A DNA stretch of 64,000 nt from Reyranella sp. Lineage in GTDB: Bacteria; Pseudomonadota; Alphaproteobacteria; Reyranellales; Reyranellaceae. This document shows positions 1 through 18,673 of the stretch, one piece after another. Location of the stretch: NCBI RefSeq assembly GCF_044224635.1, contig NZ_JBGAKA010000028.1, positions 38,799 to 102,798 on the forward strand, in the 5' to 3' direction. The notes under the pieces are model-generated. The model worked only from the letters and a program-made list of their open reading frames with translations. It ran no database searches and had not been told where the DNA came from. A program made the position numbers and the translations under genes. How positions within the stretch are numbered: the first letter of the stretch is position 1; the number at the start of each line of letters is the position of its first letter.

Positions 1-367
1 CGAAGTCGGCCGTCGGGATTGCCGACCCCGCGGCGCCCTCGGCGAGCTCGACGACGTTGGCCTCGAGGAACTGGATGTTGGAGAGACCGGCGGTGCGGGC
101 GAGGTCGTTGGCGATGGCAATATGGGCCGGGTTGTAGTCGACGGCGACGACCTTCCAGGCCGGATTGGAGGCGGCGATCAGCATGGCGCCGACGCCGATG
201 CCGCAGCCGAGCTCGAGGTAGCAGGCCTGGTCGTCCGGCGCCGGCATCTCCGCCGCCACGCTGCCCAGCAGGCAGGCCAGCGCCATGCGGACCGGCGATT
301 GCTGGATGTAGAAGCCCTCGATGTAGGCGATATCGGCAACGTAGCCGCCGCTCCACGGCTGGGTCAT
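1..367 (-). CDS. Class I SAM-dependent methyltransferase, N-terminal 122 codons only (continues past the left window edge)
   Basis: Manual translation of the minus strand from ATG at 367..365 gives MTQPWSGGYVADIAYIEGFYIQQSPVRMALACLLG...CYLELGCGIGVGAMLIAA...VVAVDYNP. LELGCGIG is Rossmann motif I. The ORF is absent from the track because it runs off the edge. Its ATG overlaps the tssG stop (ATGA at 364..367). Confidence 0.75.
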   Translation of the reverse strand, partial: MTQPWSGGYVADIAYIEGFYIQQSPVRMALACLLGSVAAEMPAPDDQACYLELGCGIGVGAMLIAASNPAWKVVAVDYNPAHIAIANDLARTAGLSNIQFLEANVVELAEGAAGSAIPTADF

Positions 368-1458
368 GCGAGTCCTTCGACAATGTCGCCTTCGAACAGA
401 GGCTCGCTGGCGTCGGTTCGGCGCGGCGTGATGGGGGATGTCGGCAGCCAGGTGTTCCAGCCGAGCAGCGGCCCGGAAGCCTTTCCGGTCTCGTCCGGGC
501 TCGCCAATACGATCGGCGGCACGGCGTCGCGCGCCAGCACGGGATTGACGGCGAAGGCGACCTCGAAGCCCACGAACGCCCGCACCAGCGAGGCCAGCTC
601 GCGCAGCAGCGGGCGATGGGGCAGCAGCCGCTCGAAGTACGGCAGGTCGAGCGGGCCGATGCGCAGCACGATGCGCGCCTGCTGGTCCCAGGCGCGCACG
701 CCGGCCGCGGCATTGACGCCGAGCTCGCAGAATTTCCCGGGCGTATGGCCGACCGGCATGCGAGTCCACTGGTCGGGCGACAGGGTGAGCCAGGCGCCGG
801 CAAACTGCTCGACCTTGACCGGCCTTCCCAGCCAGTCGGAGGCCAAGGCCTCGAGCCGGTCGGCCGAGCGCGGATGGGCGGCGAAGAAGCCGGCGTAGTG
901 GCGCAGCGCCGGCGCGCCGGCCAGCAGCCTGTCGGACAGGCCGGACGTGCCGTAACCCGTCAGGGAGAGCAGCACGTCGGCGATCGGATCGTTCTTCTGG
1001 TGGCCGGTCGCCAGCGCGCCGGTATCGGCCGCCCGGTGCGGCCGGTATTTCGCTCCGGCGGCGGCAAAGGCCGCGATCATGCGCTGCTGGAGCAGGTCGA
1101 GGAAGTCGGACAGCGAGAACGCGCGGGAGCGGCGATCGGCGACGATCGAATCGGAGTAATGGCGCGGCAACACGCCGACGAAGCCGGTAAGACCGATCAG
1201 GCCGACCGTCGTGCTCACCGAGGTCTTGCCCGGCTCGACCTTGACGGTGACGTCGGTGACCTCGGCGCCGGCGTAGGATGAGCCGGTGACGGTGGTGAAG
1301 CGGGTGGTCTCTGCCGGATCGGCCTGGCGGCGGAAGAAGCTCAGAAGCTTGACCGCGGCATCGAAGGTGAAGCGGCGCGGCTCCGCCAGCAGGTGCGCCA
1401 ACGGCGCCCGGCGCGCCACGGCCGAACGGTTCCCGGGGGTGGCCGACGGCACGTTCAC
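364..1458 (-). CDS. tssG: Type VI secretion baseplate subunit TssG (ImpH/VasB family)
   Basis: This is the C-terminal 364 aa of track ORF 364..3837. It reads VNVPSAT...HLLAEPRRFTFDAAVKLL...GLIGLTGFVGVLPRHYSD...RHYAGFFAAHPRSADRLEALASDWLGRPV, which is typical TssG. The GTG start at 1458 overlaps the tssF stop (GTGA). Confidence 0.9.
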   Translation of the reverse strand: MNVPSATPGNRSAVARRAPLAHLLAEPRRFTFDAAVKLLSFFRRQADPAETTRFTTVTGSSYAGAEVTDVTVKVEPGKTSVSTTVGLIGLTGFVGVLPRHYSDSIVADRRSRAFSLSDFLDLLQQRMIAAFAAAGAKYRPHRAADTGALATGHQKNDPIADVLLSLTGYGTSGLSDRLLAGAPALRHYAGFFAAHPRSADRLEALASDWLGRPVKVEQFAGAWLTLSPDQWTRMPVGHTPGKFCELGVNAAAGVRAWDQQARIVLRIGPLDLPYFERLLPHRPLLRELASLVRAFVGFEVAFAVNPVLARDAVPPIVLASPDETGKASGPLLGWNTWLPTSPITPRRTDASEPLFEGDIVEGLA

Positions 1459-3296: not shown

Positions 3297-3299
3297 GCG

Positions 3300-3830
3300 T
3301 CAGCCTTCTCTCGTGGCCACGGTCACGTTCTTGGTGTCGAGATCGACCAGCGTGTCGAAGGTGATCGGCTCGGGCACCGGGTCGGCGCTCAGCAGCGCCT
3401 CGATGCGCATGCGCAGCGTGGCGCTGACCTCGTCGGCCGCTTCCAGCAGGGTGACGCGCAGGCTCGTGATGCGCGGCTCGAAGCGGCGGATGCAGGCCTC
3501 GACGAGCTGGCGCAATTCCTCGCGCCGGCGCGGATCGTTGAAGGCGCCGGCGGCGAAGTCCGGCAGGCCGAACCCGACCAGCGAACGCTCCAGCTCCCCG
3601 TAACGCTCGTCCCACGAGCGCCAGCGCCGCCGTGTATTGAGCAGCTGCTCGAGGTCGTGGCCGACGCTTGCGCGCAACGCGTTCATTGCCGCCGCCGCCG
3701 ACAAGGGCCGATCGGTCGGCTCCGTTGGATCGGCATCGATCAGCCGGTCGAGCAGGGGAAGCTGCGCCCGGCGCGGCGGATTGCGCGATCCGCCGTCCAG
3801 GCTGCCGCGGCCGCCGCGCGTGTCGCTCAT
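3300..3830 (-). CDS. tssE: Type VI secretion baseplate subunit TssE (gp25/GPW lysozyme-like)
   Basis: 176 aa from the internal ATG of track ORF 3300..4181. It reads LPLLDRLIDADP...LRASVGHDLEQLLNTRR...GLPDF...LRMRIEALL, a gp25-like pattern. The start overlaps the tagJ stop (ATGA). Confidence 0.9.
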   Translation of the reverse strand: MSDTRGGRGSLDGGSRNPPRRAQLPLLDRLIDADPTEPTDRPLSAAAAMNALRASVGHDLEQLLNTRRRWRSWDERYGELERSLVGFGLPDFAAGAFNDPRRREELRQLVEACIRRFEPRITSLRVTLLEAADEVSATLRMRIEALLSADPVPEPITFDTLVDLDTKNVTVATREG

Positions 3831-4669
3831 GCCGCACTCTTGAATTGGATCGAGGCCAATTCCAGCCAGGTTCTCGGCTCCTCGCCCACCACCAGGGTGA
3901 CGGCGCCGATGCCCCGGGTCGGCCCGTTCTCGCCGAATTGATGCCAGTCGGTGGCGCGGCCCAGGCGCAGCGCGTCGGTCGGCTCGCTGGCGCTCTTGCC
4001 GAGCGGCGGGTAGATGGTCGGCAGGTAGACGTCGCCGTCGGGCCCGTCGGCGACCTGCACCGTAGCGCGGCGCCAGAACAGATCGCGCGGCCGCTTCAGG
4101 GGATGCAGCTGCATGTCGATGATGCGTTCGGGCGGCAGCCAGAAATACTTGCCGGTCGTGGTGATCGCCTCGAAGCAGCAACCGAGCAAGTCGTCGCCAT
4201 CGCGCATGTCGTCGAACGGGCCGTCCGAGGTGCTGCCGCTGGGATGAATGCGCACCTCCTCGGCCTCGGCAGCGAGCTTGCCGGCGCCGGCGGCATCGCC
4301 TTCACGCAGGGCGACCACGGCGGACAGCGCCAGGCGTTGGGCCGCCGTCGGCTCGCCGAGGAATTCCGGCACCCGGCCTTCGCTGAAGAGCTGGCGGCGC
4401 GCCGTCTCGCCGCGCAGGAGCTGGCGGAACTCGGCGACGACGATGGCCGATGTCGGATCGAGGTCGGCGCAGGCGTCGAGGACGACGTCGACGCGATCGA
4501 CGTTGCCGGCGAACAGCAGCAGCTCGGCCAGGAGGACGCGGCTGCCGATATCGGTCGGCGTCTTGCGGACCGCCGCATTGGCCGCCCCCAGAGCCTCGGC
4601 CAGGCGGCCCTCACGGAAAAGCTTGCCGGCGTCGCCGGGAGCAGCAGGCGTTGAGGTCGGCTGTGACAT
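3827..4669 (-). CDS. tagJ: Type VI secretion accessory protein TagJ (ImpE/SciE family)
   Basis: Reads LFREGRLAEALGAANAAVRKTPTDIGSRVLLAELLLFAGNVDRVD (TPR-like N-terminus), then FWLPPERI...LHPLKRPRDLFWRRA, characteristic of ImpE. I chose the ATG at 4669 because AAGGAG lies 7 nt upstream. Confidence 0.85.
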   Translation of the reverse strand: MSQPTSTPAAPGDAGKLFREGRLAEALGAANAAVRKTPTDIGSRVLLAELLLFAGNVDRVDVVLDACADLDPTSAIVVAEFRQLLRGETARRQLFSEGRVPEFLGEPTAAQRLALSAVVALREGDAAGAGKLAAEAEEVRIHPSGSTSDGPFDDMRDGDDLLGCCFEAITTTGKYFWLPPERIIDMQLHPLKRPRDLFWRRATVQVADGPDGDVYLPTIYPPLGKSASEPTDALRLGRATDWHQFGENGPTRGIGAVTLVVGEEPRTWLELASIQFKSAA

Positions 4670-4743
4670 CGAGGCTCCTTGCGAAAGATGATCCAAGGCG
4701 ACCGGCCGGCCGCTATCAATAGTCTTTTGCGTCTATCTGGCTA

Positions 4744-4872: not shown

Positions 4873-6456
4873 CTAGCCCCCCGAGGACGGCGCGGCGATC
4901 TCGGTCACCAGATGAAAGGTCGTCGACACGTCCTCGAGCTGATAGTGCGGCCGCAGCCGCATGATGCAGCCGAACACGCCCGGCCTGCCCAACCGTTCGC
5001 GCACCTGGACCTCGCCTTCGACGAGGGGGAAGCGCGCCCGCGATTCGCCGGTGCTGTCGATGTTGGTGTTGACGTATTCCTGGAGCCAGCGGTTGAGCTG
5101 CCGCTCGATCTCGTCGGCGGTCTTGAAGGAGCCGACCATGTCGCGGCCCATCACCTTGAGGAGATGGGCGAAGCGCGAGGCGCACAGCATCGAGTTGACC
5201 TGCGCCGACAGCCGCGCATTGGCATCCGCCGCCGCCGCGGTGGCGCCGGTGTAGGTTGCCGGCGCCTGCATGCTGCGCACGGCGCCGAACACCAGGTCGG
5301 AGCCGAAGGGCAGGGCGGAAACCGGCATCATGCCGACATCGACCAGATCCTGCTCCTGGCGATTGCTGAGCTGGTACTCGATGGCGGTGCGCGGCCAGGC
5401 GAAGGGCGGCCCGCTGGCGAACGGCTCGGGAGCGAGATCGGTGACGAGGCCGCCGCCCTCGCGGTCGGTCTCGACCCCGCGCACATCGGCCGGCCAGCCG
5501 TTCTCGGCAAAGGCGCGCACCGCGCAGGCGGCGAAGGCATAGCCTGCGCTCATCCACACGCGGCTGTCTGCATCGGGCGCGTGCTCCCAATAGCGGAAGC
5601 CGTCGACCCGGCTCGGATCGTCGGTCCAGGGATGGCGCGCCAGCAGGCTGGGCAGCGTCACGGCGATGAACCGCATGTCGGCCCGTCCGGCCAGCGCCCG
5701 CCAGCGCAGATGCTCGACGTTGCGCAGCGGCGCCGCGACGTCGCGCACGCCGTCGAGGTCGGAGAAGCGGTCGATCTCGAGGACGGAGGGATGCAGCGAC
5801 AGCACCACCGGCATGAACGCCGCAGCGGCGACGGCGGACAGGAGGCCGAGCGCGCCGACATCGTCGGTGGTGGCACCCGCCGCCGTTCGATGGCGCACCG
5901 CATGGTCGATCATCATCAGGCCGAACGGCTCGCCGCCCGGCATGCCGAACTCCTCCTCGTAGATCTTCTTGAAGGTGTTGCTCTGGTCGAACTCGAGCGC
6001 GCGCTCGAGATCGCGGCAGAGCTCGGGCCAGCGGATGGAGAGCACGCGCACCTTGACCCGTCGGCCGGGCTCGACGCCCCCGACAAGCCAGGCGAGCCCG
6101 CGCCAGCGGCCTTCGAGCGCCTGCAGGCGCGGCGCGTGCAGGATGGCGTCGAGCTGGGTGCCGATCGCCGCATCGATCTCGGCGATGTCGCGGTCGATGG
6201 CGGCGCGCAGGGAGTCGCGGCTGGCCGCGAGCAATCCCACGATCGCCTCGCCGAACCATGTCCGGAGGGCGTCGAAGGCGCTGCCGCCGCCATGCAGGAA
6301 GGCCGCCAGCCCGGCAGCGCCGGCGGCATGTCGTTCGCCGAAGAATTGTCCGGCGAGGATCGGATCGCGCAGCGCGCGGCCCGGTTCCTGGGCCGTCGCT
6401 GGAACCGGTCCGACGGCCATCTCGTCGATCGGCAGGGGGGCGGCCGATTCGGCCAT
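4873..6456 (-). CDS. TssC-like contractile sheath large-subunit paralog (ImpD / TssC40-type)
   Basis: 527 aa sharing blocks with the neighbouring TssC: LEGRWRGLAWLV, EFDQSNTFKKIYEEEFGMPGGEPFG, SRFAHLLKVMGRDMVGSF, RWLQEYVNTN, ARFPL. Confidence 0.85.
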   Translation of the reverse strand: MAESAAPLPIDEMAVGPVPATAQEPGRALRDPILAGQFFGERHAAGAAGLAAFLHGGGSAFDALRTWFGEAIVGLLAASRDSLRAAIDRDIAEIDAAIGTQLDAILHAPRLQALEGRWRGLAWLVGGVEPGRRVKVRVLSIRWPELCRDLERALEFDQSNTFKKIYEEEFGMPGGEPFGLMMIDHAVRHRTAAGATTDDVGALGLLSAVAAAAFMPVVLSLHPSVLEIDRFSDLDGVRDVAAPLRNVEHLRWRALAGRADMRFIAVTLPSLLARHPWTDDPSRVDGFRYWEHAPDADSRVWMSAGYAFAACAVRAFAENGWPADVRGVETDREGGGLVTDLAPEPFASGPPFAWPRTAIEYQLSNRQEQDLVDVGMMPVSALPFGSDLVFGAVRSMQAPATYTGATAAAADANARLSAQVNSMLCASRFAHLLKVMGRDMVGSFKTADEIERQLNRWLQEYVNTNIDSTGESRARFPLVEGEVQVRERLGRPGVFGCIMRLRPHYQLEDVSTTFHLVTEIAAPSSGG

Positions 6457-6490: not shown

Positions 6491-7981
6491 TCAGGCGGCC
6501 TTCGGGATGTTGGCGACCATGCGCATGCTGGTGGTCAGCTCCTCCATCTGGAGCCACGGCCGCATGTAGGCGATGGCGTTGTACGAGCCCGGCTTGCCGG
6601 GGATCTCGCGGACCTCGACCCTCGCCTCGCGCAGCGGGAAGCGGGCTTTCATGTCCTGGCCGGCATTCTCGTTGGTGTTGACGTAGTTCTGGATCCAGCG
6701 ATTGAGCCAGCTCTCGACGTTGCTCGCTTCCATGAAGCTGCCGATCTTGTCGCGCGCCATGACCTTCAGGTAGTGCGCGAACCGGCTGGTCGCCATGATG
6801 TAGGGCAGGCGGGCCGAGATGGCGGCGTTGGCCGTCGCCTCGGGGCGATCGTACTTCTTCGGCTTCTGGGTCGTCTGGCCGCCGAAGAAGACGGCGTAGT
6901 CGGTATTCTTGTAGTGGCAGAGGGGCAGGAAGCCCTGATTCGACAACTCGAACTCGCGGCGGTCCGTGATGCCGATCTCGGTCGGGCACTTGGTGTCGGC
7001 GTCGCCGTCATCGGACTTGAAGACATGGGTCGGCAGGTTCTCGACCTTGCCGCCGCCCTCGGCGCCGCGGATGGCGGTGCAGAAGCCGGTCTTGGCGAAG
7101 GCGTCGGTCAGGCGCGCGCCCATCACATAGGCGGCATTGGACCAGCAATAGGAGCTGTGGTCCATGACGCGCGACTTGCCGCTGGCGTCGAGCGGCGCCT
7201 CCTCGTACTCGAACTCGTCGATCGGCTTGGTTTCCTTGCCGTACGGTACGCGGGCAATGACGCGCGGCATGACGAGGTTGACGAAGCGCGAATCCTCGCT
7301 GTCGCGGAAGCTGCGCCACTTGGTGTACTCGGCGGTCTCGAAGATCTTGGCGAGGTCTCGCGGCTTGGAGAGCTCGGTCCAGCTGTCGAAACCGAACATC
7401 GAGGAGCCGGCCGCCGATATGAAGGGGGCGAAGGCACCGGCCGCGATGTTGGACACCAGCCGGAGCGTCTCGATGTCGTCGGGATGGCTGGTCCATTCGT
7501 AGTCGCCGATCAGGGCGCCGTAGGGCTCGCCGCCCGGCGTGCCGAACTCGTTCTCGTAGATCTTCTTGAACAGCTGGCTCTGATCGAATTCGATGGCGCG
7601 CGTCAGGTCGCGATTGAGCTCGCGCTTGGTCTGGTTCAGCACGCGGATCTTCAGCGTCGTGCTGGTCTCCGAGTTCTGCACCAGGTAGTGCAGGCCGCGC
7701 CAGCTGCCCTCCAGCTTGAGGAACTTGGGATCGTGGATGATCGCGTTGAGCTGGGCCGACAGCTTGGCATCGATCGCCGCGATCGCCTTGTCGAAGGTGC
7801 GCGTCAGGTTGCGGTCGAAGGTGACCGTGCCGGCCAGGGCCTGCTCGACGAGATTCTTGACGAGATCCTGGGCGCGGTCGGGCTCGGTCTGCTTTGTATT
7901 CGTGATGATCTGGTCGAGCAGACCGGGTGCCGCCTCGGTAACGGCGGCGCCAGCATCCGCTTGGCGTGCGGTCTCAGCCAT
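6491..7981 (-). CDS. tssC: Type VI secretion contractile sheath large subunit TssC (ImpC)
   Basis: 496 aa with LEGSWRGLHYLV, EFDQSQLFKKIYENEFGTPGGEPYG, SRFAHYLKVMARDKIGSF, RWIQNYV, ARFPLREARVEV. Confidence 0.95.
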   Translation of the reverse strand: MAETARQADAGAAVTEAAPGLLDQIITNTKQTEPDRAQDLVKNLVEQALAGTVTFDRNLTRTFDKAIAAIDAKLSAQLNAIIHDPKFLKLEGSWRGLHYLVQNSETSTTLKIRVLNQTKRELNRDLTRAIEFDQSQLFKKIYENEFGTPGGEPYGALIGDYEWTSHPDDIETLRLVSNIAAGAFAPFISAAGSSMFGFDSWTELSKPRDLAKIFETAEYTKWRSFRDSEDSRFVNLVMPRVIARVPYGKETKPIDEFEYEEAPLDASGKSRVMDHSSYCWSNAAYVMGARLTDAFAKTGFCTAIRGAEGGGKVENLPTHVFKSDDGDADTKCPTEIGITDRREFELSNQGFLPLCHYKNTDYAVFFGGQTTQKPKKYDRPEATANAAISARLPYIMATSRFAHYLKVMARDKIGSFMEASNVESWLNRWIQNYVNTNENAGQDMKARFPLREARVEVREIPGKPGSYNAIAYMRPWLQMEELTTSMRMVANIPKAA

Positions 7982-7984
7982 CTA

Positions 7985-8494
7985 TCAACCCTCCGCTTTC
8001 TTGGCGCCGAGCTGGCCGGACAGCGCCTTGAGATCGGCCTCGGAGCTCAGCACCTGCTCGAGCAGGTTCTCGAGCTCCTCCGAGCGGTCGACCTTGCTCA
8101 TCAGGTCGCGCAGCTTGGCCCGCGCCTCGAGCAGCGAGGCGAGCGCGGGAACCTGGGCGGCCACCCGCGCCGGCTCGAAATCGTCCATCGAATTGAACTT
8201 CAGATCGACCGCCATCTGGGTACCGTCGTTGGCCAGCTTGTTGTCGACCTTGAGCTTCAGGCCGGGCGTCATGTTGGCCATGACCTCGTTGAAGTTGTCG
8301 CGATCGATCTGGATGAATTTCCGGTCGGCCATGGGTTTGAGCGGCGCCGTCGGGTCGCCGGAAAAATCTCCCATGACGCCCACCACGAACGGCAGCTCGC
8401 GCTGGATCTCGGCCCCCTCGGTCTCGACATCGTAGGTGATGTGGACCCGGGGCTTGCGAACGCGGTTGAGCTTGTCGTGAATACTGGAGCTCAT
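7985..8494 (-). CDS. tssB: Type VI secretion contractile sheath small subunit TssB (ImpB)
   Basis: 169 aa reading [39 protein letters not shown], the hallmark TssB N-terminus. GGAGG lies 7 nt upstream of the ATG. Confidence 0.95.
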
Positions 8495-8684: not shown

Positions 8685-9842
8685 ATGGCTTTGGAATTCG
8701 GGCCGGACGACCTCGAAGCGATCTTGGCCGCTATTCCCGGCGACCAGCCCGTGGGGACCGATCTGCGGGAAGATTACACCCCGACCTCGGTCTATTTTCG
8801 CCTGCGTGACGCCCGCGCCGATGCGCGCGATGCCGAGCGCCAGGCCGACAGCCCCGACCGGCAGGGCGACGGCGGCGGCGACGAGGCTTTGCAGGGCAAG
8901 TGGCGGCCGGTCGCCACGCTTGCCGCCGGGGCGTTGAGGGAATCGACCAAGGACCTCGAGATTGCGACCTGGCTGACCGAGGCCCTGGTCCGGACGGCGG
9001 GGCTGGAGGGGCTCGCGGCCGGTGCCTCGGTGATCGGCGGCCTGGTGGAGCGCTACTGGGACAGCGTGTTTCCGTTGCCTGAGGAAGGCGACGTCGAATT
9101 TCGCGTCGCCGCCGTCGCCGGCCTGTCCGGCCAGGGGGCGGACGGCACGCTGATGCAGCCCCTCCGGAAGCTTCCGCTTTTCGCGCGGCCTGACGGCTCG
9201 CCCTTCTGCCTGTGGCAGTACCAGTCCTCGCTCGAGCTGGCCGGCATCCTCGACCCCGAGCGACGCGAGCAGCGCATCGCCGCCGGCGTCGTGCCGTTCG
9301 AGGATGTCGAGAACGAGGCGCGGGCGGCCGGCAAGGCACACTGGGCGGCTCAGCGGACGCTGCTGGCCGAGGCCATGACGGCCTGGGAAGCGATGGGACG
9401 CACGCTCGACGAAAAGGCCGGCCCGGCCAGCCCGTCGGGCATTCGGGTGCGCGACACCCTGCAGCTCATGCTCGACACCTGCAACCGCTTTGCGCCGGCG
9501 GAAGGCGGGGAGAGCGAGGGCGGACCGGCTCCCGCCGATGGCCAGACATCTGTCGCCGCCGTCGGGGCGGCGCCCGTTGCGGTCGCGGCGGCATCGGGTG
9601 TGGCCCTCGTCAATGGCCCGATTGCCGGGCGAGAGCAGGCCTTGCGCCAATTGGAAGAGATCGCCCTCTGGTTCAAGCGTAACGAGCCCAACTCGCCGAT
9701 CGGCTACACGTTGGACGAGGCGGTGCGGCGCGCCCGGATGGCCTGGCCGGAGCTCGTCGCCGAGCTGATCGCCGACGAGGGCTCGCGGAGCGCGCTGCTG
9801 ACCAGCCTGGGGATGAAGCGGCCCGATACGCCGGCCGGGTAG
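8685..9842 (+). CDS. tssA: Type VI secretion protein TssA (ImpA N-terminal domain)
   Basis: 385 aa reading ILAAIPGDQPVGTDLREDYTPTSVYFRLRDAR...LEIATWLTEALVRTAGLEGL, an ImpA_N pattern. Transcribed divergently from tssB. Confidence 0.85.
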   Translation: MALEFGPDDLEAILAAIPGDQPVGTDLREDYTPTSVYFRLRDARADARDAERQADSPDRQGDGGGDEALQGKWRPVATLAAGALRESTKDLEIATWLTEALVRTAGLEGLAAGASVIGGLVERYWDSVFPLPEEGDVEFRVAAVAGLSGQGADGTLMQPLRKLPLFARPDGSPFCLWQYQSSLELAGILDPERREQRIAAGVVPFEDVENEARAAGKAHWAAQRTLLAEAMTAWEAMGRTLDEKAGPASPSGIRVRDTLQLMLDTCNRFAPAEGGESEGGPAPADGQTSVAAVGAAPVAVAAASGVALVNGPIAGREQALRQLEEIALWFKRNEPNSPIGYTLDEAVRRARMAWPELVAELIADEGSRSALLTSLGMKRPDTPAG

Positions 9843-10119: not shown

Positions 10120-10608
10120 TCAGCTCGCCTTCATCTTCAGCAGGTCGTAGGTGACGACGGCGCCCTTGACCGGCGTGCCCTTCGTGTCGAGCGGCGACGG
10201 CGTGTACATGATCTTGGTGAAGTTGAGCGTGTAGCTTTCCATCGGCGCATCGCCGCCCGAGCCGCCGTGCGCGCTCGTCGAGTAGCTGGAGACGCCGCAG
10301 TCCGTCAGCTCGAGGGCGAGATACGTGTCGATCTTGTTCTTGGTCGTCGTCGTCAGCTTGATCTCGACCTTGCTGTGGAATGCTCCGGCGACCGAATCCT
10401 GATAGAGCTTCGGCGACGCCACATCGAAGTTCTTGGTGATGACGATGTCGCTGATGTGCGGGTGCGCACCTTCGCGGCCCGCACCGCCGGCGCCGCTGGA
10501 GGTGTTGCGGCTCACGCCATACTGCATGGATTGCAGCTCGATCCAATCCTTGAACCCTTCCGTCTGCACCTGACCCTTGATGTCGCCGAATTTCATATAG
10601 ATCGCCAT
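10120..10608 (-). CDS. hcp: Type VI secretion tube protein Hcp (TssD)
   Basis: 162 aa reading MAIYMKFGDIKGQVQTEGFKDWIELQSMQYGVSR...ISDIVITKNFDVASPKLY, a canonical Hcp1 family N-terminus. Confidence 0.95.
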   Translation of the reverse strand: MAIYMKFGDIKGQVQTEGFKDWIELQSMQYGVSRNTSSGAGGAGREGAHPHISDIVITKNFDVASPKLYQDSVAGAFHSKVEIKLTTTTKNKIDTYLALELTDCGVSSYSTSAHGGSGGDAPMESYTLNFTKIMYTPSPLDTKGTPVKGAVVTYDLLKMKAS

Positions 10609-10650: not shown

Positions 10651-13326
10651 TCAGGATTGATTGATAGCGAGCTTGAACGATCCATCCGTATCGACGTCGA
10701 CGTGAACACTGCTGATTGACTCCCCGTCGGCCAATCGAGACAGCACTTCAGCAGACAATTCGGGCAGCAGTGTGCGCGTGAGAATATTTTCCACGTTTCT
10801 CGCGCCCGATGTGCTTTCCGTGCAACGCGCCGCAATCGTTTCGACCAATTGCGGTGCCCAGTTGAAGCTCGCGCGGTGGCTTTCGCGCACGCGGCGACGA
10901 ATCCGCTCGAGCTGCATTACGACAATTTGGCGAATAATCTCGTCCGACAGCGGGAAATACGGCACCAGCGTCAGTCGTCCGAGGAACGCCGGCTTGAAAA
11001 ACTTCGCGAGCTCGGGGCGCAGCGCCTCGGCGAGGCCGGCGGCATCGGGCGCCGTCTCCGGGTCGGCGAACAGCTTGGTGATGAGATCGGTGCCGGCGTT
11101 GCTCGTCATGATGATGACGGTGTTCTTGAAATCGATGTCGCGGCCTTCACCGTCTTTCATGTTCCCTTTGTCGAACACCGAATAGAATACGTCCTGAACG
11201 CCGGGATGTGCCTTCTCCATCTCGTCGAGCAGCACGACACTGTAGGGACGGCGGCGCACCGCCTCGGTGAGAACGCCGCCTTCGCCGTAGCCGACATAAC
11301 CCGGCGGGCTGCCCATCAGCAGGCTGACCTTATGCTCCTCCTTGAACTCGGCCATATTGATGGTGGTGACGTTCTGCTCGCCGCCATAGAGCAGCTGCGC
11401 CAGCGTGAGCGCGGTCTCCGTCTTGCCGACGCCCGACGTGCCGACGAACAGGAAGACGCCGATCGGCCGGCGTGGATCGGTGAGGCCGGCGCGGCTGGTG
11501 TGGATCGCGCGGGCGACCGCCTCCATCGCATGGCCTTGCCCGACGACGCGCTTCTCCATGGCGTCGCGCAGGTTCAGCACCGTCTTGATCTCGTCGGACT
11601 GCATGCGGCCGGCCGGAATGCCTGTCCAGCTCTCGACGATCTCGGCAATCGCCTGGCCGTCGACGATCGGGAAGATCAGCGGCTGCTCGCCCTGAAGCGC
11701 ATGCAGCCGCTTGGTCAGATCGGCGAGCTTGGCGCGCTCGGCGGCGCCGTCGACCGCTTGCGGCGCCGGGGCGCCGTCTGCGGCGGGCGCGGCGGCGGCT
11801 TCGATCTTGGCGCGCACCGCGTCGATCTCGGTGACCAGCGCACGCTCGGCATGCCAGCGCTCCTCGAGCTGGGCCAGCTCGGCGGCGAGCGTCTCGCGCT
11901 CGGCGGTGAGCTCGCCGCGCCGCGTCGTATGGTCGAGACCGCCCTGCTCCTCGCGCTCGATGATCCTGAGCTCGGTATCGATCAGGCTGATACGGCGGCG
12001 GCGGTCGTCGATCGGCGCCGGCGTCGCGTTCTGGCTCATCGCCACGCGCGCGCATGCCGTGTCGATCAGGCTCACCGCCTTGTCCGGCAGCTGGCGGGCG
12101 GGGATGTAACGCGCCGACAGGCGCACCGCCTCGCTCACCGCCTCGTCGAAGATGCGCACCTTGTGATGCTGCTCGAGCGTCCCGACCAGGCCGCGGATCA
12201 TGGCGGTGGCCAGCTTCTCGCTCGGCTCCTCGACCTTGATCGGCTGGAAGCGCCGGGTGAGGGCGGCGTCCTTCTCGAAATACTTCTTGTATTCGGCCCA
12301 CGTCGTGGCGGCGATGGTGCGCAGCTCGCCGCGGGCCAGGGCCGGCTTCAGGAGGTTGGCCGCGTCGTTCTGGCCGGCCGCGCCGCCGGCACCGATCAGC
12401 GTGTGCGCTTCGTCGATGAACAGCACGATCGGCTTGGGACTGCCCTTGGTCTCGTCGATCACCGATTTCAGGCGGTTCTCGAACTCGCCCTTCATGCCGG
12501 CGCCGGCCTGCAGCAGGCCGAGATCGAGGGTGCGCAGGGTCACGTCCTTCAGGGCCGCCGGCACGTCGCCGGCGGCGATGCGCAGCGCCAGCCCTTCGAC
12601 GACCGCCGTCTTGCCGACGCCGGCCTCGCCGGTGAGGATGGGATTGTTCTGCCGCCGGCGGGTCAGGATATCGACCATTTGCCGGATCTCGACGTCGCGG
12701 CCGAGGATGGGGTCGATCTTGCCGGCCTTGGCCTGAGCGGTGAGGTCGATGGTGAATTGCTCCAACGCACCCGATCCGCCGGGCCGCGTCTCGCCGGCCC
12801 CCGTGCCGGCCGCCTCGGAGCCGACCGCCTGGCTGGTGGCCTGGGCCGCTTCCGACGTGTTTCCGCAAATCGCCACGTAGTCGCGCTTGAGGATGTCAGG
12901 CTGGATGGCGGCGAACTGGCCCGACGCTTCGCGCGCCCGCCGCGCCAGCATGTCGTCGGCCAGCAGCGCCCACAGGAGATGGCCCGAGCGCAGGCGGCTC
13001 GCGCCCTGCTCGACGGAGGCGAGCAGCCAGGCGTGCTTGACCATCTCGACGATGTCGGGCGACAGCGACGGCGCGCGGCCGTTGCCGGTCTTCATGCGCT
13101 CGAGCGAGCGGTTGATGTCGTTGGTCAGGCGGCCCGGATCGATCTCCCAGCGGCGCAGGATCGCCGCCATGTCGGTATCGCTGCGATCGAGCAGACCGAT
13201 CAGCATGTGCTCGATCTCGACGTTGTAGTGCGTCCGCAAGGCCGTCAGGCCCGCTGCGCTTTCAAGGGCGCGGCGGCAGACATCGTTCAGGCGTCCGATC
13301 AGTGGCTTCAGTTCTATCGCAGGCAC
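10651..13326 (-). CDS. clpV: Type VI secretion AAA+ ATPase ClpV (TssH)
   Basis: Has two Walker A boxes (GEAGVGKTAVVEGLA, GTSGVGKTETALTLA) and a ClpV-type N-domain (LIGRLNDVCRRALESAAGL...IEHMLIGLLDRSD). I moved the start to the GTG at 13326, which has GAGGAG just upstream. The 75 upstream codons of the track ORF look non-coding. The start is uncertain. Confidence 0.9.
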   Translation of the reverse strand: MPAIELKPLIGRLNDVCRRALESAAGLTALRTHYNVEIEHMLIGLLDRSDTDMAAILRRWEIDPGRLTNDINRSLERMKTGNGRAPSLSPDIVEMVKHAWLLASVEQGASRLRSGHLLWALLADDMLARRAREASGQFAAIQPDILKRDYVAICGNTSEAAQATSQAVGSEAAGTGAGETRPGGSGALEQFTIDLTAQAKAGKIDPILGRDVEIRQMVDILTRRRQNNPILTGEAGVGKTAVVEGLALRIAAGDVPAALKDVTLRTLDLGLLQAGAGMKGEFENRLKSVIDETKGSPKPIVLFIDEAHTLIGAGGAAGQNDAANLLKPALARGELRTIAATTWAEYKKYFEKDAALTRRFQPIKVEEPSEKLATAMIRGLVGTLEQHHKVRIFDEAVSEAVRLSARYIPARQLPDKAVSLIDTACARVAMSQNATPAPIDDRRRRISLIDTELRIIEREEQGGLDHTTRRGELTAERETLAAELAQLEERWHAERALVTEIDAVRAKIEAAAAPAADGAPAPQAVDGAAERAKLADLTKRLHALQGEQPLIFPIVDGQAIAEIVESWTGIPAGRMQSDEIKTVLNLRDAMEKRVVGQGHAMEAVARAIHTSRAGLTDPRRPIGVFLFVGTSGVGKTETALTLAQLLYGGEQNVTTINMAEFKEEHKVSLLMGSPPGYVGYGEGGVLTEAVRRRPYSVVLLDEMEKAHPGVQDVFYSVFDKGNMKDGEGRDIDFKNTVIIMTSNAGTDLITKLFADPETAPDAAGLAEALRPELAKFFKPAFLGRLTLVPYFPLSDEIIRQIVVMQLERIRRRVRESHRASFNWAPQLVETIAARCTESTSGARNVENILTRTLLPELSAEVLSRLADGESISSVHVDVDTDGSFKLAINQS

Positions 13327-13598
13327 GGACTCCTCGTTTTCCCCAAAGGCTCTGACGGACGATCGTACCGGGCGGAAGCGAGATATCTGCACCTTTCCGC
13401 GAATTGGACAAGTGAAGATTCGCGCACCGGAACGGTGCGCCAATGCACATGGCGTTCCCGAGTTCGTCGCGTCTCCGCCTTCGTAGGGCCGTTTTCCTGC
13501 GGTCTGGTGGAATGCTGCGTCGCCATTCTTGACGCTATCTCGGCGGCGCACCTAAACTACGAAATCTCAAAGTTCACATTCCATGCACTGAGATAGGC

Positions 13599-16298
13599 AT
13601 GGCTGCCGATGCCAAAGCTGATGCCAAGGAGGACGGGCTCCGCGGAACCCTTCCTGCCGGCACGCGCCTGCGCAACTACGAGCTGGTGTCGGTCCTGGGC
13701 CAGGGCGGTTTCGGCATAACGTACTACGCGCGCGACACGGTGCTGGGCCGCGAGGTCGCGATCAAGGAGTACCTGCCGACCGCGCTGGCGCTGCGCGAGG
13801 GCGGCACGACGGTGGTGCCGCGCTCGACGCAGCACGCCGAGGATTTCATCTGGGGCCGCGAACGCTTCCTCGAGGAAGCCCGCATCCTGGCGACGCTCGA
13901 AGGCGCCCCGGCGGTGGTGCGCGTCTACGATTTCATGGAGGCCCACGGGACGGCCTACATGGTCATGGCATTGGCGCGCGGCGACACCGTCGAGCAGCGT
14001 CTCAAGCGCGACAAGCAGCTGCCGCCAGCGATCGTCCAGCGCATGCTCGGCCGCCTGCTCGACGGCCTCGAGGAAGTGCACAAGGCCGGCTTCCTGCACC
14101 GCGACATCAAGCCGGCCAACATCATCCTCGATTCGCACGACAACCCGACGCTGATCGATTTCGGCGCGTCGCGCGCCTCGATGGCCGATCGCACCGCGGC
14201 GATGACCGCGATCTTCACGCCGCGCTATGCCGCCGCCGAGCAGCTCACGTCGGACAGGCAGGGACCGTGGACCGACATCTACGGCCTCTCGGCCACGATC
14301 TATCACACGATCACCGGGCACGCGCCGCCGAGCTCGCTGGAGCGCGCCCTCAACGATACCTACAAGCCGCTCGTCGAGCTCGCGCCGGCGGGCTTCACGC
14401 ACACCTTGCTGGAAGCGGTCGATGCCGGGCTGGCGGTGCGGTCGAAGGACCGGCCGCAATCCATAGCCAATTGGCGGCGAGAGCTCACCGGATCGGACGA
14501 TGCCGAGGACGGCGAGACGATCATCGGTGCCAGGAGCCGCTCGCGCAGCAAGTCGTCGGCGCCAGCCGATGGCGAGCCGTCGATCGGCACGAGGTCACGC
14601 TCCACGCAATCGCCGTCGACGCGATCGCCCTCCACGCAATCACCCGCCACGCACGAGCCGACCAGGCACGGGCTGACCACGCACGGGTCGACGCTGCACG
14701 CGCCCACCTCCCAGTCGCGGTCGGGACCGCCGCCATCGGCGCCTCCGCCTGATGCTGCGGCGCCTGCGGTGGCGGCGGTTCCGCCGGCCGGGATCGGCGG
14801 CAAACAGGGGCTGCTCTATGGCGGGGTGGCGCTGGCCGTGCTGCTCCTCGCGGCGGGCGGCTACTGGGCGCTTTCCCCGAAGCCCGGTCCGATGGTCATC
14901 CAGGATCCGACGGTCATCGCTCAGCAGGCAGCGGCGCGGGAGAAGGCCGATCAGGAGGCCAGGCTCAAGGCCGAGCAGGACGCGAGGTTGAAGGCGGAGA
15001 CCGAGGCCAGGCAGAAGGCCGAGGCCGAAGCGCGGCAACAGGCCGAGGCGGCGGCGCGCCAGAAAGCGGAGGCCGAGGCGAAGGAAAAGGCCGAGGTCGA
15101 CGCCAAGGCGGAGGCCGAGGCGGAAGCCCGACAGAAAGCCGAAGCGCAGGCCCGTCAGCTCGCCGAGGCGGCGGCGAGACAGAAGGCCGAGGCCGAAGCG
15201 CGGCAGCAGTCCGAGGCTGCCGCCCGGCAACGGACGGAGGCGGAAGCTCGGCAGAAGGCCGAGGCGGAAACCCGGCAAAGGGCGGAGGCCGAGGCGCGCC
15301 AGAAAGCCGAGGCCGAGACGCGCCAGAAAGCCGAAGCCGAGGCGCGCCAGAAAGCCGAAGCCGAGGCGAAGCAGAAGGCCGAAGCCGAGGCACGCCAGCG
15401 GGCCGATGCCGAGGCGCGTCAACGCGCAGAGTTGGCTGCCCGGCAGAAGGCCGAGGCGGAAGCCAGGGCAAAGGCCGAGGCGGAAGCCCGCCAGAAGGCC
15501 GAGGCCGAAGCCAGGCAGAAGGCGGAAGCCGAAGCGCGGCAGAAGGCCGAGGCGGCGGCGCGCCAGAAAGCCGAGGCGGAGGCCAGACAGAAGGCGGAAG
15601 CCGACGCCCGGCAGAAAGCCGAGATGGAAGCGCGGCAGCGGGCAGAGGAGGCCGCGCGTCAGAAGGCCGAGGTCGAGGCCAGGCAGAAAACCGAGGCCGA
15701 GGCGCGCCAGAAGACGGCCGCCGAAGCGCGGCAGAAGGCCGAGGCCGAAGCGCGCGAGAAGGCTGAAGCCGACGCGAAGCTCAAGGCCGAGGCCGATGCC
15801 CGCCAGAAAGCCGAAGCCGAGGCCAGGGCGCGCGCCGAGTCGGAGGCCGCCGCCTTGAAGTCCACCGCGGAGGCGGCCGAGGTGGCGCTGCGGCTGAGCC
15901 CGACCGATCGCCAGCGCATCCAGGTCGCGCTGACGTCGCTCGGTTTCGACACGCGCGGCATCGACGGCGCCTTCGGGCCGCGCACCCGCGAGATGATCCA
16001 GGGCTGGCAGAAGGCCCGCAACCAGCCGGTTACGGGCTTCCTCACTGCGCCTCAGCAGCAGGCCTTGCTGAGCGAAGCTGCCGCCGGCTTGGCCAAGTAC
16101 GACGAGGAAGAGAAGAAGCGTGCCGAGGCGGCGGCGCGCGCACGCGCGACGGCGCCGCCGCCGCCGCAGACGACGGGGCCGTCGACATCGGGCCAGACGT
16201 ATGGGGACGGCGGAGTCGTCTGTATGGACGGGTCCGGGCGGCGCCTGTCCTTCCCGGGCACCAGCTCATGTCCCTACGGCCTGGCGCCGGCGCGGTGA
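13599..16298 (+). CDS. Membrane Ser/Thr protein kinase with a periplasmic octad-repeat helical region and a C-terminal peptidoglycan-binding domain
   Basis: Hanks kinase motifs are present: [33 protein letters not shown]. An S/T/P-rich linker follows, then one TM helix ([21 protein letters not shown]), about 300 aa of AEAEARQK repeats, and a PG_binding_1-like stretch ([32 protein letters not shown]). Confidence 0.9.
14941..15850 (+). repeat. In-frame tandem array of about three dozen degenerate 24-nt units (GCCGAGGCNGAAGCNCGNCAGAAG-like) inside the kinase gene
   Basis: The translation shows uninterrupted (K/R/Q)AEAEARQ octads. The repeat mirrors in antisense ORFs as LGFG/RLG low complexity. 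Confidence 0.85.
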
Positions 16299-16454
16299 GC
16301 GGGACCATGACGACCGCGCGCCGGCGCGAGCGCGGCGATGTGCCATCGAAGCGATGACGCGAGCTTGCGCCGATGCGTGGCGGGGTGCGATTGCTGACGC
16401 CCGCGATCTGTGGAATCGTCCCGTGCCGATGACGGTGAGTGGGAGAGCGCGAAC

Positions 16455-17069
16455 GTGAGGCGTCATGAACTCGAGCGTCGACAGGTCGACGCGGATGGTC
16501 CGCCTGCGCTGTCCAGGGCTGCCCGACGCCTCGCGGCGGCGGTGTTGGTCCTGTTGGCCGGCCTGTCAAGTGCCGCGCCGGCTGGGGCGGACGACTGGAA
16601 CTTCAACCAGGAGATCCCCTGTACGACCGCGCCGGTCTATGGCGTGCCGTTCAGCCAATGCTGGGTGTCCAACGTCCGCACGTTCCGGATCGGCAATATC
16701 CAGAGCTGGCGCCTGACCTACACCGACACCAGGAGCGAGTTCGCCATCGGCTATTACCGGCTGGTTGCGGCGCATGGCGTCGGCGGCATGAGCCCGGTGA
16801 CGTCGAACTCTGCCCTGATCGATTGGGTGCGCACCGCCGACGCCCTGAAGCATGTCTCCGGCGGCGGCACCAATTGGGCGGTGTCGACGAGCCCGAGCGG
16901 CGAACGCTACGTCACCTTCCAGAAGGGCAATCGCCAGTGCATCGGCTTCGTGCGCAACAGCCCGGCGAACAACTGGACCCTCGGCGCCACCTTCTGCCGC
17001 CAATCGGCGACGCCGGTGCCGGTCCAGGAAGTCCAATTCATCTGGGACGCCATCAAGGTGAGGGAGTAG
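16455..17069 (+). CDS. Hypothetical secreted protein (Sec signal peptide, four Cys)
   Basis: Signal peptide AARRLAAAVLVLLAGLSSAAPAGA, then DDWNFNQEIPCTT...QCW...RQCIGF...TFCRQ. The start is uncertain: GTG at 16455 has GGGAG upstream, and the track ORF begins at GTG 16410. I recognised no family. Confidence 0.6.
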   Translation: MRRHELERRQVDADGPPALSRAARRLAAAVLVLLAGLSSAAPAGADDWNFNQEIPCTTAPVYGVPFSQCWVSNVRTFRIGNIQSWRLTYTDTRSEFAIGYYRLVAAHGVGGMSPVTSNSALIDWVRTADALKHVSGGGTNWAVSTSPSGERYVTFQKGNRQCIGFVRNSPANNWTLGATFCRQSATPVPVQEVQFIWDAIKVRE

Positions 17070-17081
17070 CCGCGGCCCCGT

Positions 17082-17405
17082 CTAGGGCTTGAATTCCTTG
17101 GGCAGCGAGAAGCCCGAGGCTTCCAGCTTCTTTTCGAGGACGGGGATGGCCGCGGCCGTGTTGCCCTTCTGGCAGTTCTCCAGGGCGTACCCGGCCTCGA
17201 CGTCGAAGCGCCGGCCCGGCGAGTTCTGGACATAGCGCCGATACATCGAGGAGAGCTCGGCACAATAGGCCTTGTCGTCCTTGACTTGCGCGGATGCGGT
17301 CACCGGCGCGCCGAGCGACATGCCGGCGATCGCCAGGCCCAGGGAGATCGGCGGGAGCCGGGCGATCGGCAGGATCAGGTCGATTTGCAGGAGCAGGTGT
17401 TTCAC
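17082..17405 (-). CDS. Small hypothetical secreted protein (107 aa)
   Basis: GTG at 17405 is preceded by GGGAGG at 6 nt. The signal-like N-terminus is LGLAIAGMSLGAPVTASA, and the mature part has 2 Cys. The upstream part of track ORF 17082..17570 looks non-coding. Confidence 0.55.
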   Translation of the reverse strand: MKHLLLQIDLILPIARLPPISLGLAIAGMSLGAPVTASAQVKDDKAYCAELSSMYRRYVQNSPGRRFDVEAGYALENCQKGNTAAAIPVLEKKLEASGFSLPKEFKP

Positions 17406-17584: not shown

Positions 17585-18673
17585 ATGCCGGTGCGGGTGA
17601 TCGGAATGATCGGTGTCACGCCGCCCAGCGACGGCGCCACCGTCCACGTCATCCGCGGCGGACTCTCGCCCGCTTACCTGCGTTCCTTCGCCCAGGCGCA
17701 CGACCAGGCCGGCTTCGACCTGGCGCTGGTCGGCTACACCGCCTCGTCGGCCGAGGGTTTCCTCGTCGCCCAATACGCCGCGCAGCACACCGAACGGCTG
17801 GGTTTCCTCATCGCCCATCGTCCGGGGTTCGTCGCGCCGACGCTGGCGGCGCGCAAGATCGCCACCTTCGATCAGCTCACCGGCGGACGCGTCGCGATCC
17901 ACATCATCTCGGGCGCCAGCGATGCCGAGCAGGAGAACGAAGGCGATTTCGCCCCCAAGGAAGTGCGCTACCGCCGCGCCGCCGAGTACATCGAGGTGAT
18001 GAAGCGTGTGTGGACGAGCGACAGGCGCTTCGACTTCGAGGGCGAGTTCTATCGCCTGCGCGGCGCGCGCTCCGACGTCCAGCCCCTGCAGAAGCCGCAC
18101 CCGCCGCTGTTCTTCGGCGGCTCGTCGGAAGGCGCGCTGGCGATGGGCGCCGAGCACTGCGACGTGTTCGCGATGTTCGGCGAGCCGCTCGCCGCCACTG
18201 CCCAGCGCATCGCCGAGTTCCGCAGCAGGGCGGCGAGATTCGCACGCACGCCCACCTTCAACATCTCGTTCCGGCCGATCCTGGGCGCGACCGAAGGGGA
18301 GGCGTGGGACCGCGCGCGGCGGATCCTGTCGGCCATCAAGAAGCCGGCCGACCCGACGGGCTTCGGCAACAACAAGGTGCCGCTCGATCAGTCGGCGCGC
18401 CGCCTGCTCGATTTCGCCGCGCAGGGCGAGACGCATGATGCGCGGCTGTGGATGCCGATCGCCGAGGCGACCGGCGCGACCGGCAACACCTCGTGCCTGG
18501 TCGGCACCGCCGAGCAGGTCGCCGATGCTCTGCTCGAGTACTACAAGCTCGGCGTCCATTCGTTCCTGGTTCGCGGCTTCGATCCGTACGAGGACACGAT
18601 CGAGTTCGGCCGCGAGCTGATCCCGCGCCTGCGCGCCGGCGCGGTCGAGCTCGACAGGGCGATGGCAGCGTAA
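17585..18673 (+). CDS. LLM-class (luciferase-like) flavin-dependent oxidoreductase
   Basis: 362 aa reading GFDLALVGY...FLIAHRPGFVAPTLAARKIATFDQLTGGRVAIHIISG...PPLFFGGSS, typical of the LLM family. Confidence 0.85.
   Translation: MPVRVIGMIGVTPPSDGATVHVIRGGLSPAYLRSFAQAHDQAGFDLALVGYTASSAEGFLVAQYAAQHTERLGFLIAHRPGFVAPTLAARKIATFDQLTGGRVAIHIISGASDAEQENEGDFAPKEVRYRRAAEYIEVMKRVWTSDRRFDFEGEFYRLRGARSDVQPLQKPHPPLFFGGSSEGALAMGAEHCDVFAMFGEPLAATAQRIAEFRSRAARFARTPTFNISFRPILGATEGEAWDRARRILSAIKKPADPTGFGNNKVPLDQSARRLLDFAAQGETHDARLWMPIAEATGATGNTSCLVGTAEQVADALLEYYKLGVHSFLVRGFDPYEDTIEFGRELIPRLRAGAVELDRAMAA

Follow-up and report, generated by a model that had tools for sequence, protein, structure and literature searches.

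Why does a Hanks-type serine/threonine kinase with a predicted peptidoglycan (PG)-binding domain lie beside the clpV and hcp genes of a type VI secretion system (T6SS), and does it belong to the regulation of that system? The question is raised by the gene at 13599-16298 (plus strand) of the window, by which we mean the whole 64,000-nucleotide stretch of Reyranella sp. DNA analyzed here (contig NZ_JBGAKA010000028.1 of assembly GCF_044224635.1). The gene encodes a product of 899 amino acids (aa) and has a G+C content at third codon positions (GC3) of 0.86, in a window of ~68% G+C; genes of the window were picked by GC3 and then profiled with Pfam. The answer that we favor, with moderate confidence and from sequence comparisons, is that the product is a kinase of the TagE/PpkA class that would act in the threonine phosphorylation pathway to switch on the adjacent Reyranella-type T6SS.

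The original prediction for this locus described a kinase, a linker, a transmembrane (TM) helix, octad repeats, a PG_binding_1 domain, and a Cys-containing tail, in that order, and all of these elements were recovered by Pfam profiling, hydropathy, and repeat register. The features of the gene, all on the plus strand, are as follows.

13599..16298, plus strand: kinase gene, candidate TagE/PpkA (open reading frame [ORF], Pfam, and the orthologs L004, L009, and L032 of the same build)
13644..14471, plus strand: Hanks-type kinase domain, predicted to be cytoplasmic, residues 16-291 (Pfam, motifs, and alignment to PDB entry 5hnv)
14487..14804, plus strand: low-complexity juxtamembrane linker rich in S, T, P, and G, residues 297-402 (composition and Tandem Repeats Finder [TRF])
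14805..14879, plus strand: predicted single TM helix, residues 403-427 (Kyte-Doolittle hydropathy)
14943..15854, plus strand: octad-repeat helix, predicted to be periplasmic, residues 449-752, 38 octads (register, composition, and TRF)
15903..16061, plus strand: PG_binding_1 domain, residues 769-821 (Pfam, AlphaFold2 [AF2], and Foldseek)
16062..16208, plus strand: helix, then a Pro/Ala-rich disordered linker, residues 822-870 (AF2)
16209..16295, plus strand: two-Cys C-terminal tail, residues 871-899 (conservation and AF2)

The Pfam Pkinase match covers residues 27-245 (E = 1e-34), and the catalytic motif set is complete, with GQGGFG at 34-39, VAIK at 53-56 (K56), HRDIKPAN at 167-174 (N174), and DFG at 187-189; threonines T199, T203, and T207 lie in the activation loop. 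The Kyte-Doolittle window exceeded 1.6 at residues 403-427 only, and a matching segment is found in the orthologs. Because this is the single hydrophobic segment and is followed toward the C-terminus by the PG-binding domain and by both Cys residues of the protein, we predict a bitopic topology, in which the kinase and the disordered linker would be inside the cell and the C-terminal half, beyond the one TM helix, would be periplasmic. The linker that precedes the TM helix (over approximately residues 301-404: S, 17%; P, 15%; A, 13%; G, 11%; T, 11%) is not kept in sequence in the orthologs, as judged against the linkers of L009 and L032. Within it, at 14600-14692, TRF found two short tandem repeats of 15 bp that encode S/T/P-rich, STQSP-like pentapeptides, which could be phospho-Thr docking sites for Fha or simply a disordered region.

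The PG_binding_1 domain (PF01471) scored 37.2 bits against a gathering cutoff of 23 (E = 3.4e-9), and its core motif (D-G-x-F-G-x-x-T) is present as IDGAFGPRT. For the C-terminal 145 residues, an AF2 model built from a 47-sequence alignment had a mean predicted local distance difference test (pLDDT) score of 67.5. In this model, the domain is a three-helix bundle (pLDDT of 70 to 80) followed by a further helix, the Pro-rich linker (model residues 94-115) falls below 50, and the Cys tail is a small beta-hairpin (~75 to 83). The top Foldseek matches were PG-binding domains, namely, those of SltB3 (solved with N-acetylglucosamine-N-acetylmuramic acid [NAG-NAM]-pentapeptide), SleB, SltB2, CtpB, and phage endolysins, including phiKZ gp144. 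The fits had a root mean square deviation of 1.6 to 2.3 Å over 50 to 57 columns, with weak E values since the domain is short. Sequence and model together suggest that this domain binds peptidoglycan. Foldseek gave no match for the Cys tail.

The kinase domain itself resembles PpkA. When all PDB sequences were compared, the closest solved relative (over residues 16-291) was PpkA (PpkA-294; PDB 5hnv), at 202 bits and E = 1e-58; the next matches were PknE (84 bits) and PknB (78 bits). The 5hnv protein, whose source organism we take to be Serratia, has in common with the Reyranella kinase motifs beyond the universal kinase signatures, including DRPQ-I. The best match on annotated plasmids and chromids was the Caballeronia grimmiae p1 kinase WP_244796388.1 (L089; 46.7% identity), which is encoded in the arrangement TssJ-TssK-TssL-TssM-TagF-kinase. 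Kinases of “Ca. Accumulibacter” (L060) and Niveibacterium (L082), 44 to 46% identical, occupy the same arrangement and are followed by PP2C and Fha. The periplasmic domain of all three T6SS kinases is DUF4384, which is another uncharacterized PpkA input module, found in betaproteobacterial T6SS clusters. In the Caballeronia locus, the DUF4384 kinase gene is followed by a gene for an MltA-domain protein. Plasmid or chromid kinases of Azoarcus KH32C, R. leguminosarum, and Azospirillum brasilense (41 to 43% identity) are not T6SS linked and have unrelated C-termini, and we set them aside as uninformative.

It had been pointed out in the original prediction that PpkA carries a vWA domain and not the architecture seen here. 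Pfam found no vWA domain in the product, so that part stands. The difference is not disqualifying, because PpkA periplasmic domains vary: that of Serratia PpkA (residues 363-482) is unlike that of P. aeruginosa and binds RtkS (PMC6082577), Acidovorax PpkA shares 26% identity with its Pseudomonas counterpart and owes its position to the outer-membrane protein TssW (PMC12607579), and the betaproteobacterial kinases carry DUF4384. Neither a PG_binding_1 domain nor a long helical repeat is mentioned in three papers on PpkA (PMC6082577, PMC12607579, and PMC3953482), and our literature searches for Pkinase plus PG_binding_1, for Gram-negative Hanks kinases with a peptidoglycan-binding domain, and for the Reyranella T6SS returned nothing relevant.

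As had been claimed, the kinase gene is transcribed divergently from clpV and hcp, both of which are on the minus strand. The T6SS genes of the window, assigned by Pfam, and the partial gene at its left edge are listed here.

2-367, minus strand: start of a methyltransferase gene cut by the window edge, first 122 codons (overlap with L005)
367-1458, minus strand: TssG
1455-3296, minus strand: TssF
~3300-3830, minus strand: TssE
3827-4696, minus strand: TagJ/ImpE
4873-6456, minus strand: TssC'
6491-7981, minus strand: TssC
7985-8494, minus strand: TssB
8685-9842, plus strand: TssA
10120-10608, minus strand: Hcp
10651-13551, minus strand: ClpV (Pfam AAA_2, AAA_lid_9, ClpB_D2-small, and Clp_N)

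A search of the window with tblastn found no FHA gene, no PP2C gene, and no second kinase gene. To that extent, the earlier remark that no FHA protein or PP2C phosphatase is nearby holds for the window. It does not hold for the cluster, since the left edge of the window cuts through the T6SS genes, and the apparent absence is an artifact of that edge. Contigs with an identical TssF (L005) match window positions 1-4042 at 99.9% DNA identity, and L005 runs 3.46 kb further left, where the methyltransferase gene is followed by a convergent PP2C gene (pppA), by tagF, and by the C-terminal part of TssM; ~1.2 kb separate the window edge from the start of the PP2C gene. Two relatives with 83% and 66% identical PP2C have the order Fha (FHA plus T6SS_FHA_C)-TssJ-TssK-TssL (DotU plus OmpA)-TssM-TagF-PP2C, and no kinase lies within the Fha-to-PP2C operon of either. 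The minimal threonine phosphorylation pathway consists of tagE, tagG, and tagH (review, PMC13584744). Since tagG, tagF, and (in the relatives) tagH are present and there is no other kinase, the gene at 13599-16298 is the only candidate tagE.

To this we add four observations on the cluster itself. The true start of ClpV is probably near position 13330, because tblastn homology to the long ORF sets in only at its residue ~74. The tandem TssC (VipB) paralogs at 4873-6456 and 6491-7981 (both minus strand) are ~36 to 37% identical to each other and are kept in relatives. The methyltransferase that is cut at window positions 2-367 is complete in L005 (3676-5181): a class I enzyme of 501 aa with a MethyTransf_Reg domain (PF10119), whose gene lies between tssG and pppA, the latter being convergent. 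L008 has it too, with a VgrG-DUF6931-PAAR set inserted alongside. In relatives, the cluster has at its far end a glucosaminidase (PF01832) gene that lies divergently beside fha (L008, 196-984, minus strand; P0190 locus); its product may be a wall-remodeling accessory or an effector.

Linkage to the T6SS is conserved. We scanned one genome per species and obtained 80 loci, with kinase identities of 80 to 42%; each was rated by its T6SS genes, its architecture, and whether it is truncated. Exact co-occurrence was seen for three features (a place beside the T6SS, the Cys tail, and a 219-aa downstream gene), which were found together in L009 (Reyranella sp.) and L032 and also in five loci from metagenomes (L004, L093, L094, L095, and L096). 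With the window included, the eight loci beside ClpV-Hcp form three lineages by spacer length and identity: the window with L096; L004, L009, and L093 to L095; and L032. The genes just downstream of the block formed by the T6SS, the kinase gene, and the downstream gene vary by locus, and the block stays intact. ClpV identity in the T6SS-adjacent loci is 62 to 87%, and the lower part of this range reflects long-read assemblies with frameshifts. Low kinase identities in L032 (59%) and L096 (51%) were likewise attributed to frameshifts, and divergence was rejected as their cause. When we checked whether orthologs lie mostly away from T6SS genes, the tail-bearing ones were all T6SS adjacent, and L010 was the sole exception among close relatives. 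With PppA and TagF in the cluster, Fha in relatives, the 5hnv match, and adjacency conserved in three lineages, the PpkA/TagE-type assignment is better supported than the original prediction had supposed.

Two elements are private to the T6SS-adjacent orthologs: the Cys tail and the gene that follows. C875 and C891 are the sole Cys residues of the whole 899-aa protein, and the tail motif (GGVxCxDxSGRRxxFPGxxSCPYGLxPxR-COOH) is conserved across ~20 distinct metagenomic sequences. We take the tail to be a small module of the disulfide type. The downstream gene and the putative signals flanking the pair are these.

13529..13558, plus strand: sigma-70-like promoter match (consensus scan, 9/12 positions)
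16410..17069, plus strand: downstream gene for a small secreted protein of 219 aa (co-conservation with the kinase)
17109..17123, plus strand: terminator-like hairpin (consensus scan; hairpin count not above the shuffled expectation)

The product of the downstream gene has a signal peptide and 4 Cys residues, and no Pfam family matched it. Its family comprises 42 representative clusters among 1.84 billion proteins, and its homologs are encoded only beside tail-bearing, T6SS-adjacent kinases, directly after the kinase gene. Two distant relatives (P0343 and P0322) have the domain fused to PG_binding_1. A single-sequence AF2 model of the 219-aa protein had a pLDDT of 46 and was discarded, with no fold search made from it. 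The promoter-like match lies ~40 bp 5′ of the kinase ATG, inside the divergent clpV-kinase intergenic region; the terminator-like hairpin is directly 3′ of the downstream gene, and none was seen between the two genes. Weak as such scans are, this pattern fits a two-gene operon. By analogy with TagR, RtkS, and TssW, we consider the downstream protein a candidate periplasmic partner of the kinase.

How such a kinase might work can be modeled on PpkA of Pseudomonas, Serratia, Agrobacterium, and Acidovorax. The kinase would be held to the sacculus by PG_binding_1 through the long helical spacer, and this periplasmic module would set where or when the kinase gathers in clusters and phosphorylates its own activation loop. 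Once active, the kinase would phosphorylate Fha (TagH) or TssL, the latter of which is phosphorylated by the PpkA of Agrobacterium (PMC3953482). Phosphorylation of Fha or TssL would lift repression by TagF and nucleate assembly of the membrane complex and baseplate, and PppA, the PP2C of the cluster, would undo it. The T6SS-specific signal would come from the Cys tail, probably together with the 16410-17069 protein, as TagR, RtkS, and TssW do elsewhere. The substrates named here, and any effect on T6SS firing, are thus proposed on the model of the known systems.

A number of observations weigh against this assignment. Fha was seen in the clusters of relatives only, and the contig from the same strain ends at the C-terminus of TssM. 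Five of the eight supporting loci (L004 and L093 to L096) come from one metagenome study, and L004, L009, and L093 to L095 look like one lineage. L010, of equal identity (80%), lies downstream of housekeeping genes, and no T6SS is found within 10 kb of it; it is cut within the repeat by a contig end, and its C-terminus, hence any tail, is lost. The kinase gene occupies the border of the cluster, has a promoter-like site to itself, and is not part of the tagF-pppA operon, where it is found in other bacteria. Moreover, about 27 paralogs in the Reyranellaceae (54 to 75% identity) have a kinase, a TM helix, 0 to 265 aa of charged helix, and PG_binding_1 and are not beside T6SS genes. Since these paralogs share both the kinase type and the periplasmic module, neither is T6SS specific. 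Finally, a neighbor-joining (NJ) tree, which carries no support values and includes no P. aeruginosa, Agrobacterium, or full-length Serratia sequences, places the betaproteobacterial T6SS kinases in a separate clade.

Taken furthest, these points would make the protein a general kinase of envelope or wall homeostasis that arose by lineage-specific expansion, an analog of the PASTA kinases with targets outside the T6SS, its place beside clpV being an accident of gene order. We regard this explanation as unlikely, if still deserving of serious attention. It draws on the same-build paralogs in unrelated contexts, on L010, on the divergent position at the cluster border, and on the fairly close kinship of the T6SS-adjacent lineages, as measured by ClpV. 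On the other side, the cluster has a PP2C, TagF, and (in relatives) Fha and yet no other kinase; the block remains intact although the genes just downstream of it change; and the Cys tail and the private downstream gene separate the T6SS-adjacent orthologs from the ~27 paralogs, in which we found neither the tail nor T6SS neighbors. In the same NJ tree, the T6SS-adjacent kinases and L010 form one clade nested within the Reyranellaceae paralogs. The comparisons therefore indicate that the true orthologs are T6SS linked and that the architecture is a trait of the family, not an invention of the T6SS. The paralog expansion, with several copies per genome, is visible among loci L009 to L040 (e.g., L012, L015, L021, and L039); further relatives carry TPR repeats (Vineibacter; L040) or nothing recognizable in place of these modules.

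A more specific form of the TagE/PpkA reading is that the protein is a wall-tethered sensor. Its PG_binding_1 end would be fixed to the sacculus and its TM/kinase end would float in the inner membrane, on a stiff single-helix leash of 25 to 45 nm. Where peptidoglycan is lost or cleaved, or where the inner membrane and the wall come to be spaced differently, the kinase would be set free or clustered anew, and T6SS assembly would start at that place. We offer this as a speculative idea with a rather low likelihood of being right. The envelope-damage sensor of the original prediction is an attractive idea of this kind, and the comparisons made here speak neither for it nor against it. Were it true, a direct “wall under attack” input (for example, from the amidase or muramidase effectors of a competitor) would replace TagQRST, and specificity would be conferred by the Cys tail together with the rare protein encoded downstream. 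By extension, the ~27 paralogs would be a Gram-negative counterpart of the PASTA kinases, each a readout of the wall with an output of its own.

We also considered whether the protein is chiefly a structural or positional factor, in which PG_binding_1 and the helix would anchor the T6SS membrane complex to the sacculus, in the manner of TagL, TagN, or the OmpA-type extension of TssL, with kinase activity secondary. PG-binding accessories recur in T6SSs, the TssL of this cluster type has an OmpA domain (PMC3953482), and foci of Acidovorax PpkA position the apparatus (PMC12607579). However, TssL already provides a PG anchor, every catalytic residue of the kinase is conserved, and the PP2C partner in the cluster implies genuine phosphosignaling, so that we judge this role improbable.

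The remaining alternative concerns the octad repeat. Thirty-eight in-register copies of the consensus K-A-E-A-E-A-R-Q occupy residues 449-752, with Pro and Gly absent (A, 37%; E, 21%; R, 13%; Q, 11%; K, 11%; 47% charged). In the DNA, TRF reported a 24-bp unit in 37.4 copies at 14926-15823, with 70% matches and a score of 570. This array is old and diverged and is neither chance nor artifact: an origin in misassembly was rejected, as the copies are just 70% alike in DNA, the frame is intact, and independent assemblies agree. The 304 residues hold 129 opposite-charge i/i+4 pairs and 2.6% bulky hydrophobic residues (LIVMFWY), and the apolar pattern has zero power at 3.5 to 3.6 residues. On an ideal helix the octad drifts 80 degrees per repeat, and therefore no seam can form. 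With heptad signal and hydrophobic seam both absent, a canonical coiled coil is unlikely; the sequence criteria favor a single alpha-helix, and the repeat resembles a single alpha-helix or a rod like TolA domain II, probably monomeric. Profile matches of low complexity (Fibrinogen_BP, ClfA/ClfB, TolA, and HxsA) came from the repeat, were all under their cutoffs, and were dismissed as compositional.

Fully extended, the repeat of the window would measure 45.6 nm, and the helical repeats of the orthologous lineages range over ~23 to 46 nm. The unit differs as well: L009 has ~28 octads of a sequence unlike that of the window, and L032 has ~19 to 24 octads of KAAAEAQQ, rich in Ala and Gln and 29% charged. 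The distance from the kinase to the PG-binding domain is 2,265 to 2,278 nucleotides (nt) in the window and L096, 1,902 to 1,941 nt in L004, L009, and L093 to L095, and 1,686 nt in L032. Period and helical character are thus kept between lineages, and unit sequence and copy number are not, which indicates that the unit has been homogenized separately in each lineage, by concerted evolution of a spacer under selection on period and helicity and not on sequence; it does not point to a calibrated ruler.

The original prediction had given weight to a length of about 45 nm, exceeding a typical periplasm, and had proposed a ruler. What is said here of periplasm width rests on general knowledge and not on measurements in Reyranella. 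Alpha-helical TolA domain II reaches comparable lengths (110 to 335 residues across Proteobacteria; PMC12204202), and therefore a helical periplasmic spacer of ~300 residues is not anomalous. Synthetic E. coli tolA variants with 2 to 39 repeat copies each rescue a tolA deletion, at least in part (PMC3477136). That the helix is a fixed-length molecular ruler of ~45 nm, longer than the periplasm and gating firing on envelope geometry, is very improbable: a stiff, monomeric helix is predicted, and the spacer is near constant within the one lineage of 1,902 to 1,941 nt, but between the window and L032 it differs by as much as 579 nt (~190 aa), the octad sequence changes between lineages, helices of the non-T6SS paralogs that share the module start from none at all, and TolA works with such spacers in periplasms of ordinary width and tolerates the range of copies just given (PMC12204202 and PMC3477136).

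The repeat also affects how this family appears in databases. Public gene calls are systematically split into N-terminal pieces of 290 to 525 aa and C-terminal pieces of 100 to 250 aa, because contigs end or long-read assemblies frameshift within the 24-bp repeat. We rejected genuinely shorter homologs (290 to 525 aa) as an explanation: L004 and L093 to L096 have frameshifts, L010 has a contig end within the repeat, and the C-terminal fragments are listed apart. Owing to such fragmented calls, architecture surveys will undercount proteins that combine a kinase with PG_binding_1.

The genes beyond 16410-17069 scan as metabolic or transport genes. Three luciferase-like monooxygenase paralogs lie within 25 kb (17585-18673, 29791-30822, and 40617-41681), and in L004 and L009 a homolog of the third (40617-41681) is just 4 to 6 kb downstream of the kinase block. 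This spacing suggests an insertion or rearrangement of ~20 kb in the present genome.

To our knowledge, the input signal of the T6SS phosphorylation pathway is known only in Pseudomonas (TagQRST), Serratia (RtkS), and Acidovorax (TssW). A PpkA-type kinase with a PG-binding input would provide a concrete hypothesis, namely, that T6SS assembly is coupled directly to the cell wall. The wider family brings to light a lineage-specific set of Hanks kinases, predicted to bind the wall, in Gram-negative bacteria.

Parts of the protein recall several known systems. Single alpha-helix (SAH) domains of the ER/K type (myosin X and caldesmon) are classically eukaryotic and cytoplasmic. Like them, the repeat has dense i to i+4 Glu-Arg/Lys pairs, few bulky hydrophobic residues, and no heptad seam; unlike them, it is richer in Ala, and its charge falls from 47% in the window to 29% in L032. 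TolA also has a TM anchor, a long helical spacer rich in Ala, Glu, and Lys, and an intragenic tandem repeat of variable copy number. However, the TM helix of the kinase has no His, and there is no SHLS motor-binding motif, no domain III, and no tol-pal context; the NCBIfam TolA profiles matched from the repeat only (TIGR02794, 57.7 versus a cutoff of 59.45; NF007065, 62.8 versus 213). Judged from these profiles, the likeness to TolA is compositional and not one of homology.

The PASTA kinases of Gram-positive bacteria (PknB, PrkC, and Stk1) combine, as here, a Hanks kinase, a TM helix, and an extracytoplasmic module that recognizes peptidoglycan (predicted in the present case). They differ in that the wall-binding fold here is PG_binding_1 and the setting is the Gram-negative periplasm. 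Pfam found no PASTA domain in the product, and NCBIfam PknB_PASTA_kin (NF033483) matched its kinase part only, at 132.6 bits against a cutoff of 450. The PASTA kinases are a possible functional analog of the whole Reyranellaceae paralog family.

The betaproteobacterial DUF4384 kinases (L089, L060, and L082) are closer in kind: T6SS linked and bitopic, with a kinase domain that is 44 to 47% identical and has QGPWTD-type motifs in common with it. Unlike the Reyranella protein, they have no long repeat, they occupy the classical position after TssJKLM-TagF, and they form the separate NJ clade. The 16410-17069 protein, for its part, stands at the logical place of a periplasmic partner such as TagR (Pseudomonas), RtkS (Serratia; PMC6082577), or TssW (Acidovorax; PMC12607579), whereas no sequence relationship to any of the three was detected. 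TagQRST-like genes were not seen in the window or the related loci.

The vWA domain is what P. aeruginosa PpkA carries in the periplasm. With the PpkA/TagE kinases (P. aeruginosa PA0074, S. marcescens, A. tumefaciens Atu4330, and A. citrulli), the Reyranella protein shares an N-terminal Hanks kinase, one TM helix, and an input domain at the periplasmic C-terminal end, and it is encoded with a T6SS cluster that has PppA, TagF, and, in relatives, Fha. It differs in its 304-residue octad helix, PG_binding_1 domain, and Cys tail, compared with a 120-aa domain in Serratia (PMC6082577); in the position of its gene, which is at the clpV end on a divergent transcript of its own and elsewhere follows tagF/pppA; and in being nested in a family with many non-T6SS members. 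The novelty would thus lie in the input module: a predicted sacculus-bound helix appears to replace the vWA, DUF4384, or Serratia-type periplasmic domain.

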